64,000 nucleotides of DNA from a virus (IMGVR_UViG_3300037313_001148:26670-90669), one strand, 5' to 3'; positions 1,454-59,315 are shown, numbered from the stretch's first letter. Program-made: numbers and translations. The notes: generated by a model not told the origin, from the sequence alone.

Positions 1454-2212
1454 GTGGAAATCTTTGCGTGCCGCAAGCATGCTTCAAACACACCTGGGCG
1501 CGTTTTTCTCCATCTCAGGCTCAGTTTTCTGCTGGAGCTTTGCATGGGCGAAGACGAACACGACTACTGGTATCCGGGAGACAACCGCGACAAAGAACCC
1601 TCAACTCCCGATCGGATAAAAAAATTACAGGAACATCTCAGCAAGCTCAACAAAATCTTTTTCAGGCTCGGACTGATCTTTCAGCGGCTCGCCCCTCAAA
1701 TTGACGACAGGTGGACAGGATTGGCCGTCGTCAATCCTGTGCTCGAATGTCTAGATCCCATGGATCCTGATGATCTCGTGCGGTTATACGCCGACGTAAT
1801 GGATACGGCACGGTCCAAGGTCAGGACCATGAATTCCTTGGAGTCCAAGCTTCGCGAGACACACCGGCTCGCAAAACTTGCGGGCGGTGAAAACGTTTGG
1901 ATGTTGAAGGATCCCGGCCTCTCCCGTTCTCAGCCATCTCCTAAAAACGAAAACACATCTCCATCTCTCGATTACGTGGAGATATTACCGATCGACACCC
2001 CTCCTTCTCCGTCGTCCCTTTCGTCGGCGCAGCCGACGACTCAGCCAAGCTCCGATCGCCCTGGGATAGCCCTGGCCGAGATCGCCGCAATGCTTCGCGT
2101 AAATCCAGAGTCATTTAATTTCTCATTCGAGGATGTAAATAAGATGCATCACTCGATCTGGCCTCTGCTTCGTGAAGATATGTGCAAATTTCTAAATCAG
2201 CCGAGCCATTGA
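1454..2212 (+). CDS. hypothetical protein carrying an in-frame hairpin element
   Basis: 252 aa ORF (start uncertain, possibly ATG 1544); contains TPPSPSS encoded by the repeat at 1993-2039. Confidence 0.6.
   Translation: MEIFACRKHASNTPGRVFLHLRLSFLLELCMGEDEHDYWYPGDNRDKEPSTPDRIKKLQEHLSKLNKIFFRLGLIFQRLAPQIDDRWTGLAVVNPVLECLDPMDPDDLVRLYADVMDTARSKVRTMNSLESKLRETHRLAKLAGGENVWMLKDPGLSRSQPSPKNENTSPSLDYVEILPIDTPPSPSSLSSAQPTTQPSSDRPGIALAEIAAMLRVNPESFNFSFEDVNKMHHSIWPLLREDMCKFLNQPSH
1993..2039 (+). repeat. dispersed pyrimidine-tract + cGNAg hairpin element, copy 1
   Basis: cgacacccctccttctccgtcgtccctt followed by tcgtcggc-GCA-gccgacga. Confidence 0.9.
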
Positions 2213-2213
2213 A

Positions 2214-2606
2214 ATGGACGCTCGAGAGCAGGCGATTTTCGATCATTTTGAACAGCTTCGGCGGGAGGAGATTCCTGTCGTGGTGCATGCGGCCCACAAT
2301 TCAGGGAATCTTCGGGCGAAACAAGTCGGCTGGGTCTGGAAAGTTCATGATACGTCCAAGCCCGACGCGAAGGATAACGTCGTGCGGCGATCCTGTGAAG
2401 AGCCGGCGGTAATTATCCAATTCCCTGATGGCGTCACTCAATTTTTCTGGGCTTCTGAGGTACGCCGCGCCAATCTCCGCAACCCTCTGGTTCGTGTGCC
2501 GCGATACCACACCGAGCATTCGGGATTCCAGCAATACTCTGCCGACGACCGCCTTGCTGTTGACCGGGAAGTTCCCAAGAAAGCCTCGAGACGGAGGAAG
2601 AAATGA
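2214..2606 (+). CDS. hypothetical protein
   Basis: 130 aa, tightly packed in the operon. Confidence 0.65.
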   Translation: MDAREQAIFDHFEQLRREEIPVVVHAAHNSGNLRAKQVGWVWKVHDTSKPDAKDNVVRRSCEEPAVIIQFPDGVTQFFWASEVRRANLRNPLVRVPRYHTEHSGFQQYSADDRLAVDREVPKKASRRRKK

Positions 2607-3136
2607 AGGGCACGTCTCGTCCACCGAGTGAATCCGAAGTCTCGAAAGCATTAGTTCATGATTTCATTGACGGAATCATTGTCAGATCAGTCAATGATTT
2701 CCCTGGAGCCTCAGAACAATCGCTTCTCGGCACGGCATTCAGTGATTTCACGGCGGCTCTCAGTGCGGGCAATGTGACATCCGCCACGGCTCTTGACGGC
2801 GTTCAGACGGTCAATCTCTTGAAGGAGCGGATCGCCTGGCTTTGCGAAAACGCCAGGGTCATGGCTGTAGAGATTCGTGCTCCTGGACAGTTGATCGGCG
2901 TTTCGCGCTACTATCCTTCTGGGTATACCCTTACAACAACGCCCAAGCAAATGTTGTGGTCGAAAGACGAGCCTCCTCCCGGCCTTTCCGAGCCGATCAG
3001 CGAGAAGGAACAAAGCCTTACGAATCACATCATCGGCATTCTCAATGAATGCCCTGACTCGGTTCGGCTCCGCGTGGCCAACACTTACTGCGTTCGGTGC
3101 GGCTCCGAAGTGAAAGGCCATTTCTGCAATGCCTAA
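2603..3136 (+). CDS. hypothetical protein with C-terminal CxxC...HxC motif
   Basis: ATGA overlap; ends CVRCGSEVKGHFC. Confidence 0.65.
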   Translation: MKGTSRPPSESEVSKALVHDFIDGIIVRSVNDFPGASEQSLLGTAFSDFTAALSAGNVTSATALDGVQTVNLLKERIAWLCENARVMAVEIRAPGQLIGVSRYYPSGYTLTTTPKQMLWSKDEPPPGLSEPISEKEQSLTNHIIGILNECPDSVRLRVANTYCVRCGSEVKGHFCNA

Positions 3137-3383
3137 GATTAAGCCTATCGTTAAAAAATTATTCATGTTTTCAATCACGTCCATCGCTATCTCATTCTCT
3201 TTTGCTTATTCGACATCCCCTGACGACAAAATCCTCATGTTTATCAGGGCGTTTTGCTTGTGCTCCTGGATCTTTATTGCATTCAGGAACGGCGTAAACG
3301 TGGGCATGCAATCGCTTGCTGAAAATCTCCTTGGAAGAGCGGAAGAACTCATCGAAAATTTGGAATCAATCGAAGACGAATGA
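3129..3383 (+). CDS. small membrane protein
   Basis: Two hydrophobic segments; overlapping start and stop with neighbours. Confidence 0.6.
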   Translation: MPKIKPIVKKLFMFSITSIAISFSFAYSTSPDDKILMFIRAFCLCSWIFIAFRNGVNVGMQSLAENLLGRAEELIENLESIEDE

Positions 3384-3709
3384 AGTTATTTCAATGGCGA
3401 GAAATTGAGGCTGCCGTCGATTACGCTGCTCAAGGTGGCCAAGCACTACATATTCACAATTTCATAATTGATCGCGACAAGGCTCCCGCCTGTTTCAAGC
3501 GGGATGTTGACGCCGGAAAGCAGATTGCTCACCTGTTCGACCAGGACAAGAATCGGCTCATCGCCACGGCTCGACGATTAGGCGTGCGGGTAATCCTGGT
3601 GGAACGCGAAGGCACCGATGGTATGCACATCGATCTTTGCGGCAAGCCACTCGAGCGTGCCGTCAAGGAATGCGAAATTCCTGGAACTAAACAAGGGAGC
3701 TTATTCTGA
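3380..3709 (+). CDS. conserved phage protein, DUF4031-like
   Basis: HLFDQD...ARRLG...HIDLC pattern recalled for DUF4031-type proteins. Confidence 0.5.
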   Translation: MKLFQWREIEAAVDYAAQGGQALHIHNFIIDRDKAPACFKRDVDAGKQIAHLFDQDKNRLIATARRLGVRVILVEREGTDGMHIDLCGKPLERAVKECEIPGTKQGSLF

Positions 3710-4146
3710 TGGGACTTCCGGAATCCACTGACGATCTGACCCCGGACAATCCTCGCCGCCACATTCCCAATTGGACTGTCACTGATCCTCACGAGTGGGC
3801 TAAGAAATTTGCCGCCTGGATTTCGTATTGTCTTGGCGAGTTCACTTCTCATCGTTTCTGGGAAAATGATTACGCCGAGTGGTTTGAGATGGCGATCTTT
3901 TCCGGGAAGGAATCTTATCGGCTGGAGAAGTACCCGTTAAAAACAGGAACACTTGAAGAAGTTATCAAGGGACGACGTTTCGCGGTCCTGCAACGTAAGT
4001 CATGGACGGACAAAAGAATCTTTGTTATCTATTTTGATGGAAACTGGAACGTCAAAATGGGAAGCGACGGAAGTCAAATCACCACTCTGACCAAAATTGA
4101 AGATATCTTGGCGGATGACTGGGAGCACGTTACCCTGCCGGCCTGA
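3709..4146 (+). CDS. protein with C-terminal DUF2829/Tad2-like domain
   Basis: C-terminus ...LQRKSW...IEDILADDWEHV resembles the DUF2829 RxxW...DxLAxDW signature. Confidence 0.5.
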   Translation: MGLPESTDDLTPDNPRRHIPNWTVTDPHEWAKKFAAWISYCLGEFTSHRFWENDYAEWFEMAIFSGKESYRLEKYPLKTGTLEEVIKGRRFAVLQRKSWTDKRIFVIYFDGNWNVKMGSDGSQITTLTKIEDILADDWEHVTLPA

Positions 4147-4378
4147 TTTTCAGGATTTCTCTTGCCTTCCCCTGCTTTCCCTGCTAGGATCTGGCGACCC
4201 GGAGGCTCCACGATGCTTTTTGCCCTCCTTTTTCTGCCACCCCTGATCGTTCTTGGGGTAATGGTAGAAATCGTCTGCCGCATCCAAGACACAGAAACAA
4301 AAGCATCCGAATATATAAACAGCAACCTCCGGATCGACCAACCTCATTCCCGGAACGTCCAACCAGAAGGAATTCGGC

Positions 4379-58390: not shown

Positions 58391-58446
58391 CAGGTGATAG
58401 CATCAGGCCCGAGCCGGCTCCTGATTTGCTCTTTCGGATAACATGC

Positions 58447-59022
58447 ATGCATTCCCATGACCGGACCCTGGCTTCCCAAATCCTGAACGATTCTGATCGA
58501 AAGACTCACCGCCACGAACTCGCCTGCATTTACGTCAAGGAACACGCATACGATCTTGTTGATAAACTCATGCACATTTACTCTGGCGAATGGGACTGTC
58601 AGATTCCCGGACACATCCAAGCAAACATCGAATCTCATCTCATGAAAGGGGAGGGAAGGTATTCCGTTACGGTCGGGTTTGTGGACGTGACTGTTTCTTG
58701 TGTTGTTAGGGAGGACGGAAGCTCGATCCCTGCCAATATTGCCGTCGAAGTGAAGACTCAAGAAACTCCGATCTCTGACTGTATCAGGCAAATCAAACTT
58801 TACAAGAAATATCAAGATTCACTTGACTTTCAATATGGAAACGGTCAAATCGACTGGTTCCTTATTACAGACTATAAGATTTCAAAAACAGAACATAGTA
58901 TTCTCTGGAATGAAGGAATCTTTCATGCCTGCCTGGGTGAAATGTTCCAGCAATGGATCGACGAGAACCGGCATCGCCTCCCAAATCGTTCAAAGGTAAA
59001 ACCTTCACGGTTTTCAGATTGA
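58447..59022 (+). CDS. PD-(D/E)XK nuclease-fold protein
   Basis: GFVDV...AVEVKT...IRQIKLY. Confidence 0.75.
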   Translation: MHSHDRTLASQILNDSDRKTHRHELACIYVKEHAYDLVDKLMHIYSGEWDCQIPGHIQANIESHLMKGEGRYSVTVGFVDVTVSCVVREDGSSIPANIAVEVKTQETPISDCIRQIKLYKKYQDSLDFQYGNGQIDWFLITDYKISKTEHSILWNEGIFHACLGEMFQQWIDENRHRLPNRSKVKPSRFSD

Positions 59023-59047
59023 CTCCTCCTGAAAATCCCGGTACAAT
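59019..59047 (+). promoter_or_regulatory. sigma70 promoter upstream of the solitary CRISPR repeat
   Basis: TTGACT, 17 nt, TACAAT. Confidence 0.75.
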
Positions 59048-59115
59048 AAACCTGCCTGAAGTGGGAAGGATAGGGGGCATGTGCCAGGGAGCCGGGCCTT
59101 CTCAAGAGCATCAAT

Positions 59116-59148
59116 GCCGTCTCTCGCGAGAGGGACGTGGATTGAAAC
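59116..59148 (+). CRISPR. second solitary type I-C-like repeat
   Basis: gccgtctctcgcgagagggacgtggattgaaac (33 nt); shares the 3' 17 nt with 43873-43905; compensated hairpin. Confidence 0.75.
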
Positions 59149-59267
59149 TCACTCGCAACGCACAGAAAACCACGCATAGATTGATCGATCTAGGCTTGGG
59201 CCTGTCCGCTTCGATCCGACAACCCCGGCTCCCATTTACATTTTATTTCGTGTTTTATTATACTCCC

Positions 59268-59315
59268 CCGACACTCCTCCTTCTCCGTCGTCCCTCTCGG
59301 CGGCGCAGCCGCCGA
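59268..59315 (+). repeat. hairpin element copy 10
   Basis: ccgacactcctccttctccgtcgtccctc followed by tcggcggc-GCA-gccgccga. Confidence 0.9.

Follow-up and report, generated by a model that had tools for sequence, protein, structure and literature searches.

A dispersed pyrimidine-tract and mini-hairpin element in a 90-kb virus genome, a possible single-strand DNA priming or loading site

The single-strand initiation (ssi) sites of plasmid RSF1010 are, among described systems, the closest in build to the element reported here, a pyrimidine tract followed by a small GC-rich hairpin that recurs along the virus genome IMGVR_UViG_3300037313_001148. RSF1010 ssiA consists of CCTTTC, a 9-bp hairpin capped C(GAA)G and then a C, as read at the locus, which was located with an ssiA 40-mer that IncQ plasmids contain at 100% identity; its opposite-strand counterpart, ssiB, combines CCTTTC with a hairpin whose sequence differs and whose cap is C(GCA)G. 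RepB' binds the six 5' nucleotides and the ssi hairpin's first base pair and initiates a DNA primer at T32, within the 3' tail, its helix-bundle domain being required (PMC8567376, PMC13037366). The C(GNA)G cap makes an extraordinarily stable DNA mini-hairpin (PMC13037366). In the complementary-strand origins of G4, St-1 and alpha3, which use DnaG, and in other ssi and sso (single-strand origin) signals, a mini-hairpin that escapes single-strand binding protein (SSB) likewise marks a primase start on single-stranded DNA (PMC13037366). Unlike the element described below, the G4, St-1 and alpha3 origins are single sites in small single-stranded DNA genomes, read by host DnaG or RNA polymerase.

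The DNA analysed, hereafter the window, comprises bases 26,670-90,669, the right-hand 64 kb, of a single-contig virus record of 90,669 bp. Positions are those of the window, and coordinates that carry the prefix L001 or L002 lie to its left. The element is present in 16 copies, and we tentatively read it, by analogy with the sites above, as a single-strand DNA priming or loading site.

Anatomy of the element and comparison with ssi sites

With at most two mismatches allowed, the window contains the anchor CTCCGTCGTCCC 22 times where 7.3 would be expected, and 0 of 100 shuffles reached 22. A covariance model (R1) built from eight copies, all of identical geometry, matched the whole genome exactly 16 times (22.8-77.6 bits; 13 copies in the window and 3 to its left) and revealed neither weaker family members nor anything beyond these copies. 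Each of the 13 window copies listed in a preliminary description of this sequence was recovered at its place by the anchor search and R1, and extending the scan to the remainder of the genome, as that description had proposed, added the three plus-strand copies in the left 26.7 kb. Thirteen copies lie on the plus strand and three on the minus strand:

L001:1170-1220, plus strand: element copy left of the window (R1)
L001:10544-10598, plus strand: element copy left of the window (R1)
L001:19456-19506, plus strand: element copy left of the window (R1)
1990..2040, plus strand: element copy with loop GCA within a 252-aa open reading frame (ORF), frame DTPPSPSS (R1 74.7 bits)
6592..6642, plus strand: element copy with loop GAA within a 279-aa ORF just ahead of the terminase gene (R1 73.9 bits)
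12838..12888, plus strand: element copy with loop GAA at residue ~529 of a 1186-aa portal fusion (R1 74.9 bits)
17603..17653, minus strand: divergent copy, antisense within a 916-aa ORF, with loop TCC (GGA on the other strand) (R1 22.8 bits)
18322..18372, plus strand: element copy with loop GAA within the 916-aa ORF (NTPPSPSS) (R1 71.2 bits)
22602..22654, plus strand: intergenic copy with a 9-bp stem and GCAA loop, 22 nt ahead of the ATG at 22677 (R1 51.6 bits)
35253..35301, plus strand: intergenic copy with a 7-bp stem and GAA loop, beginning 6 nt past a stop codon and finishing 13 nt ahead of an ATG (R1 62 bits)
41277..41329, minus strand: copy flanked by two minus-strand genes, with a 9-bp stem and GAA loop (R1 45.9 bits)
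41687..41735, plus strand: copy flanked by two minus-strand genes, with a GAA loop (R1 47.8 bits)
43332..43380, plus strand: copy with a GCA loop at the divergent junction between a minus-strand cluster and plus-strand genes (R1 59.8 bits)
48415..48465, plus strand: copy with a GCA loop within a 531-aa ORF, residue ~354 (R1 74.3 bits)
55551..55600, minus strand: divergent copy with a GCA loop between a primase gene and the body of a primase-helicase gene, in the first 40 codons of the latter (R1 35.9 bits)
59266..59316, plus strand: intergenic copy with a GCA loop, directly 3' of a sigma-70-like promoter match at 59235-59264 (R1 77.6 bits)

All copies present the same succession of parts: a 27-nt pyrimidine tract, a spacer of 1-2 nt, a perfect GC stem of 7-10 bp closed by a short loop, and a C. 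The tract reads CC(G/A)ACAC-YCCYCYTYC-TCCGTCGTCCC, its variable positions swapping pyrimidine for pyrimidine only; the three minus-strand copies form a divergent subtype in which CTGCCCT replaces CTCCTCC. The spacer measures 2 nt (1 nt in two minus copies) and ends in a pyrimidine, the base 5' of the stem being a pyrimidine and the base 3' of it a C in all 16 copies. Stems start with TTG, TCG or GTG and are perfect in 16/16. The loops are GAA in seven copies, GCA in six, and GTA, GCAA and TCC in one each, with a C-G closing pair throughout. The fixed geometry claimed earlier holds, with 18-19 nt separating the G of CCGTCGT from the loop centre in 11 window copies and 20-20.5 nt in two.

The claimed covariation of the stems is equally clear. 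In the model-fitted alignment, 125 of 125 stem cells form Watson-Crick pairs, without a single G.T pair, and six of the eight pairs show two-sided changes (26 cells), one-sided changes occurring in none; when partners were moved by 1-3 columns as a control, only 24-47% of the cells paired. Throughout the genome, GC-rich hairpins of at least 7 bp that close a GNA triloop all bear the tract. The other strong hairpins have different loops, several of them being ordinary terminators with a T run.

The G..A loop lies on the tract strand in 15 of the 16 copies (14 GNA triloops and one GCAA). Because an inverted repeat acting as a duplex would be indifferent to its loop, this asymmetry implies that the functional form is single-stranded, tract-sense DNA. 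The combination of a G..A loop, C-G closure and stem changes that are always double is the signature of a d(C-GNA-G) mini-hairpin and not what a protein site in duplex DNA or an ordinary RNA helix would show (PMC13037366). When folded as DNA, tract positions 4-7 (CGAC) and 22-25 (GTCG) can also pair around a 14-nt all-pyrimidine loop; we rejected this 4-bp helix as part of the element, as it is broken, with no compensation, in three copies that carry CAAC.

In agreement with the analogy drawn in the preliminary description, the element shares the build of ssiA and ssiB and the same two loops, GAA and GCA. In both systems a pyrimidine 5' tail abuts a GC-rich hairpin whose stem sequence varies among copies yet pairs, the hairpin (~21 nt) carries the cap C(GAA)G or C(GCA)G, the C after the stem gives a Y.C mismatch at the stem base, the signal resides in one strand, and the same replicon encodes a primase of the archaeo-eukaryotic primase (AEP) fold. 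The six bases 5' of the stem are almost all pyrimidine, as in ssi, but their sequence is not CCTTTC, and sequence similarity is confined to composition. IncQ plasmids, in contrast, have one site per strand within oriV beside iterons, instead of 16 dispersed copies distributed 13:3, and they conserve a 13-nt 3' tail with a GTG start triplet 4-6 nt past the hairpin, but no more than 6 nt on the 5' side. The phage AEP shows no special closeness to RepB' among AEPs and has no fused helix-bundle domain. Since neither a conserved start tail on the 3' side nor an origin context with one site per strand was found when looked for, we regard the element, cautiously and by analogy, as possibly working like an ssi signal without being a member of the IncQ family.

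A candidate primase and a possible priming role

Two neighbouring genes in the right part of the window provide a candidate machinery:

54664..55392, plus strand: 242-aa AEP-fold primase, candidate reader of the element (alignment, AF2 pLDDT 92.5, Foldseek)
55480..57705, plus strand: 741-aa primase-helicase-like protein (PHROG 19930, 29234, 10537; Atlas)

The 54664 protein carries a DxD motif (at LIDID) and SGNGxY where sxH is usual. Throughout its AEP clade the histidine of sxH is replaced by Y, W or F (SGNGxY), farther homologues retaining H. Its modelled structure matches LigD PolDom, cyanophage S-2L PrimPol, RepB' and PriS in Foldseek, with no sequence-level match to PDB chains. It had been called a RepB'-like AEP; the AEP fold is confident, but LigD PolDom and the S-2L PrimPol score better than RepB' (3h20; E 4.8e-4, TM 0.44). 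The neighbouring 741-aa protein resembles PriCT/DUF5906 primase-helicases, as had been proposed, with Atlas scores of 0.92-0.96 to PriCT/DUF5906/Prim-Pol clusters that are a lead, not proof, in addition to its PHROG matches; it has no Pfam or PDB sequence match. Judged from these resemblances, it may provide the AEP with its helix-bundle partner. The whole 90.7-kb genome yielded neither a recognisable DNA polymerase gene nor a DnaG-type primase, which, together with the presence of the AEP-fold primase and the PriCT/helicase-like protein, we count in favour of priming.

Closer relatives of the AEP exist in the protein database (P0002-P0006, 52-60% identity), and an identical AEP (P0001) occurs on three other contigs. 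Searches with the AEP led to one locus at 34% identity among metagenome contigs and to three planctomycete loci among genomes, IMG/VR yielding none. The element's exact 23-mer pattern has 0 matches in IMG/VR, and a looser pattern of anchor plus loop has 27, all due to chance, none with the tract or a proper hairpin.

The 13 plus-strand copies are evenly spaced, with a coefficient of variation of the gaps of 0.42 (P 0.0014 on a circle, 0.002 on a line) and a largest gap of 12.7 kb. The strand distribution is biased (two-sided binomial 0.02). Strand bias and spacing had together been said to fit lagging-strand priming; the even spacing is significant, but the bias equals that of the genes.

Our tentative reading is thus that of a single-strand DNA priming or loading site. 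The element would act as single-stranded DNA of the pyrimidine-tract strand, once exposed by a helicase or by strand displacement, and its C(GNA)G-capped stem would fold into a mini-hairpin that resists SSB. A phage primosome made of the 242-aa AEP and the 741-aa PriCT/helicase-like protein would recognise the hairpin base and the pyrimidine tail and would start a primer at the element, as RepB' does at RSF1010 ssiA and ssiB. With a rightward fork, the 13 plus copies would restart complementary-strand (lagging or displaced) synthesis about every 7 kb, and the three divergent minus copies, including one located between the primase gene and that of the helicase, would launch synthesis in the opposite direction. 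An SF3-type helicase moves on the leading-strand template, so that an associated primase would have to be brought to the opposite strand by a separate route; regularly placed hairpins that resist SSB could supply that recruitment. From established features, namely the anatomy and covariation of the element, the strand asymmetry of its loop, its even spacing, the AEP fold and the likeness to ssiA and ssiB, we infer the AEP as reader, the point at which synthesis would start and the direction of the fork.

Several observations weigh against this reading. Both priming at the element and its link to the AEP are put forward by analogy. At the identities covered, AEP and element do not occur together: planctomycete genomes with AEP homologues (36-45% identity) lack the element, and an R1 scan of the AEP-homologue loci and two whole planctomycete genomes (34-45% identity) did not find it. 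Conservation extends over 27 nt on the 5' side, versus the 6 nt needed by RepB' (PMC8567376), and in the 3' flank only the first base (C) is conserved, with GTG absent at +3 to +8. The 13:3 bias is no more than the gene strand bias (the plus strand carries 76% of coding bases), and about 12 of 16 copies are co-oriented with neighbouring genes versus 10.6 expected; orientation by itself is therefore no pointer to replication and cannot separate it from transcription. The strand-fixed part of the third-position GC skew is about -0.06 (C over G on the plus strand), a sign opposite to that left by long plus-strand exposure to cytosine deamination, which is weak evidence. Most intergenic copies lie 13-34 nt ahead of a start codon, a position suited to an RNA or promoter role, and 7 kb is long for Okazaki fragments.

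Placement in genes and competing explanations

Eight copies are intergenic, two overlap the end of an ORF and six lie within ORFs, the internal calls resting on a coding frame that runs on at both sides by codon-usage score. The earlier statement that copies occur both between and inside genes, with two plus-strand copies in a minus-strand cluster, thus agrees with the placement. Five internal plus copies are translated in a single frame, as (D/N)TP(P/L)SPSS followed by a variable hairpin-encoded stretch, in low-complexity linkers; the chance of five copies in one frame is 0.012, or 0.05 if a copy overlapping the last 22 codons of an ORF in another frame is counted. None of the 16 copies contains a stop codon in its forward frames, and copies are strongly enriched in non-coding DNA and disordered linkers.

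Judged from protein family matches, at least two internal copies sit at what are gene boundaries in other phages. At copy 48415, a PHROG_1366/AAA_24 domain (307 positions) ends ~30 residues earlier and an in-frame ATG follows 14 nt past the hairpin; at copy 6592, the in-frame ATG comes 17 nt past the hairpin and the following 76 residues match, weakly (E 8e-4), a stand-alone PHROG family of 89 positions. Copy 12838 comes just after the end of the portal domain. Eight of the 13 plus copies lie no more than 50 nt from a co-oriented start codon, four of them at 13-17 nt. Conversely, six of the 16 copies cannot serve a co-oriented gene start: two plus copies between minus-strand genes, one antisense in an ORF, one minus copy in the first codons of a plus-strand gene, and two internal copies with no start codon afterwards. 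These six fit a role at the level of DNA. Even spacing with copies in long ORFs, in one Pro/Ser-linker frame, would be required by a genome-wide DNA function and not by a promoter. Two copies (L001:19456-19506 and 59266..59316) have 13 nt in common 3' of the hairpin (CAYAGGAATTAAC; L001:19506-19520 and window 59316-59330) and AT-rich, promoter-like DNA 5' of the tract, shared flanks that suggest a duplicated larger unit or a common ribosome-binding region.

Alternatively, the 27-bp tract might be a phage-specific promoter, used by host RNA polymerase with a phage sigma or other factor, and the hairpin a stem-loop protecting the 5' end of the transcript against decay; or the whole might be an intercistronic RNA processing or stability element. 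We consider such a role unlikely, if not strongly so. It would account for the proximity of copies to co-oriented gene starts, for the co-orientation of about 12 of 16 with local genes and for the two in-ORF copies located at gene boundaries of other phages, with their in-frame ATG 14-17 nt past the hairpin, but four copies would fire antisense and even spacing is no property of promoters. A factor is available, in the form of an RpoD/RpoS-like sigma factor with regions 2 and 4 (Sigma70_r2, r4; L002:7677-8567, genome 25677-26567), encoded ~100 nt left of the window just ahead of the structural genes (its top NCBIfam match, below the cut-off, is MzaA). The tract fits (G/A)AC-N16-CGTC, with the spacing of extracytoplasmic function (ECF)-type promoters in our own reading against the textbook consensus, and an invariant G lies 7 nt past CGTC. 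However, the phage sigma is not ECF-like, and the spacer of sigma promoters is normally unconserved, whereas here it varies only pyrimidine for pyrimidine. The two outermost stem pairs covary in 16/16 although they are upstream of a start at the invariant G. An RNA stem-loop is likewise disfavoured by the 0 G.U pairs in 125 cells and by a GNA triloop (14/16) in place of GNRA or UNCG.

Ordinary sigma-70-like promoters exist elsewhere in the genome, as do hairpin and T-run terminators, and the former are already enriched over shuffles in all three 20-kb stretches of the window scanned. A sigma-70-family promoter within the tract was rejected, a TTGACA/TATAAT-like pair being absent and only the ECF-like AC-N16-CGTC fitting. 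Two sigma-70-like matches, at 59235-59264 (TTTACA-18-TATACT) and 35226-35256 (with a perfect TATAAT), end 3 and 10 nt ahead of two copies. At these copies (59266 and 35253) the element would be the transcript 5' end. As a general 5' leader it was rejected, a sigma-70-like promoter standing directly upstream of only 3-4 copies.

Copy number, length and co-orientation recall the promoter sets of T7-type phages, in which, according to textbook accounts, co-oriented conserved units of 23-27 bp recur at about one per 5-7 kb and transcripts start with a stem-loop. T7 too has promoters within genes. These sets need, however, a phage RNA polymerase, and T7 promoters are unevenly spaced and lack a GNA hairpin. 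No RNA polymerase family was matched in the whole genome (ORFs scanned with Pfam or PHROGs), where the DxDGD motif is absent and the largest ORF has 1186 aa. The earlier remark that no RNA polymerase is visible in the window thus extends to the entire genome, but with the RpoD-like sigma factor next to the window a transcription role is conceivable.

The promoters of the N4 virion RNA polymerase resemble the element in their small template-strand hairpin with a 3-nt G..A loop and conserved 5' sequence (PMC13037366), and an N4-like start, ~11-12 nt from the loop centre, would land on the invariant CCC at the tract end. The N4 hairpin form (a template-strand stem of 5-7 bp with a purine-centred loop of 3 nt) is present here, whereas a position upstream of the genes served is not. 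N4 differs in that its three promoters lie at one end of the genome and serve a virion polymerase of 3,500 aa. We rejected an N4-type hairpin promoter: no RNA polymerase was found, and its transcripts would be antisense to the surroundings of ~10 of the 13 plus copies, with no consistent coding content. Other candidates failed too: an antisense gene leader (an SD-like, or Shine-Dalgarno-like, GGAGAAGGAGG and a GTG are followed by ORFs of 5-108 codons without pattern), an intrinsic terminator (no T run after 15/16 copies; six copies within ORFs), a programmed frameshift site (no conserved slippery heptamer; a 2-nt variable spacer), an anti-SD mimic (CCTCCTT in only two of four tract subtypes) and a CRISPR repeat (wrong layout).

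The bias towards one strand also brings to mind phages with localized single-strand interruptions, whose conserved motif is confined to one strand and repeated 4-14 times there (PMC3517423). A phage nickase would then cut one strand within the tract late in infection, as in T5, phiKMV-like and tf-like interruptions, a reading that we hold to be improbable. The sites of phiKMV-like, tf/LUZ24-like and T5 phages are likewise repeated on essentially one strand between genes, but their motifs are 7-19 nt long and lack a hairpin (PMC3517423, PMC3604761). The tract does not contain the exact phiKMV motif CGAC-N5-CCTA/CTCCGG; its nearest form, CGAC-N6-CCTTCTCCGT, agrees at 12/14 specified bases with one extra spacer base, and phiKMV motifs also lie between genes, co-oriented and just ahead of start codons, with no link to transcription by RNA-seq (PMC3604761). 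The resemblance was singled out from a small number of known consensus sequences and may be due to chance. In addition, phiKMV sites have no hairpin 3' of them, R1 has no match on phiKMV, three copies lie on the other strand, and the GNA loop would be left unexplained. A nickase shared with phiKMV was rejected, the two genomes having no common protein, two very weak matches aside.

Finally, the element might be a selfish hairpin repeat, similar to repetitive extragenic palindromes (REP) or miniature inverted-repeat transposable elements, spread via single-stranded DNA by a host or lost HUH-type transposase and kept where harmless; this appears slightly more improbable still. The ends of REP and IS200/IS605 elements form hairpins, show strand bias and carry a conserved 5' motif. 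Sixteen near-identical copies, free of stops in their forward frames and concentrated in non-coding DNA and disordered linkers, would suit such an origin, as would sequence subfamilies that combine tracts and stems in mixed ways. Even spacing (P 0.0014), however, is unexpected of random insertion, the stems are perfect in 16/16 with no decayed copy detected by R1, and terminal inverted repeats and target duplications are absent. No transposase or HUH gene was recognised among the ORFs scanned, many small ones being left out of the scan, and no element copy was found in two planctomycete genomes, IMG/VR or the AEP-homologue loci.

Genome context and significance

The contig start (TGAGTCTGGCCAGGGTA) and end (TGAGCCTGGCCAGGGTA) have 16/17 bases in common, and by this evidence the record is probably circularly closed or terminally redundant, with one variant base at its ends. 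The record is that of an uncultured tailed phage. Its large terminase reaches no more than 29-33% identity to IMG/VR sequences and 31% to those of named phages. In the 1186-aa ORF (window 11267-14827), a Mu-type portal is joined to a 2H (LigT-like) phosphoesterase and an ADP-ribosyltransferase-like domain. Further genes encode a RecD2-like and a UvrD-like helicase, an ERCC4-type nuclease and a DNA methyltransferase. Thymidylate-synthase-like, PhyH-type dioxygenase, glycosyltransferase and radical-SAM genes (L002:5958-6830, window 43993-44814, 45428-46564 and L001:13948-15315) form a set that suggests hypermodified DNA bases. A 385-aa protein with an N-terminal prepilin-type methylation motif (N_methyl, E 6e-5) is encoded on the minus strand at window 39593-40750, in a minus-strand cluster that also holds three element copies. 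The window has 0 matches to Rfam at gathering score, and an ARAGORN search for tRNAs returned nothing. The host is probably a planctomycete, given that Singulisphaera sp. GP187 and further planctomycete or PVC (Planctomycetes-Verrucomicrobia-Chlamydiae) assemblies contain AEP homologues.

To our knowledge, cellular and well-studied phage primases recognise tiny, frequent triplets, and structured signals for single-strand initiation are known only from the origins of plasmids or single-stranded DNA phages, as one or two sites. By analogy, this virus may instead represent a double-stranded DNA phage without a DnaG/DnaB-type replisome that would rely on evenly spaced structured signals of ~50 nt and a split AEP and PriCT-helicase, with the spacing need written into a Pro/Ser linker, an arrangement that we find somewhat doubtful. 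If true, it would reveal a different organisation of discontinuous synthesis when the helicase travels on the leading-strand template, in a 90-kb double-stranded DNA phage, and would provide a defined natural substrate for AEP primase biochemistry. Should the element prove to be a promoter or a nick site instead, it would still be a new and easily assayed phage signal, in a lineage whose hosts are probably Planctomycetes, a group with almost no known phage biology. With five copies translated in one frame, it is also a clear example of how a nucleic-acid signal can constrain protein sequence.

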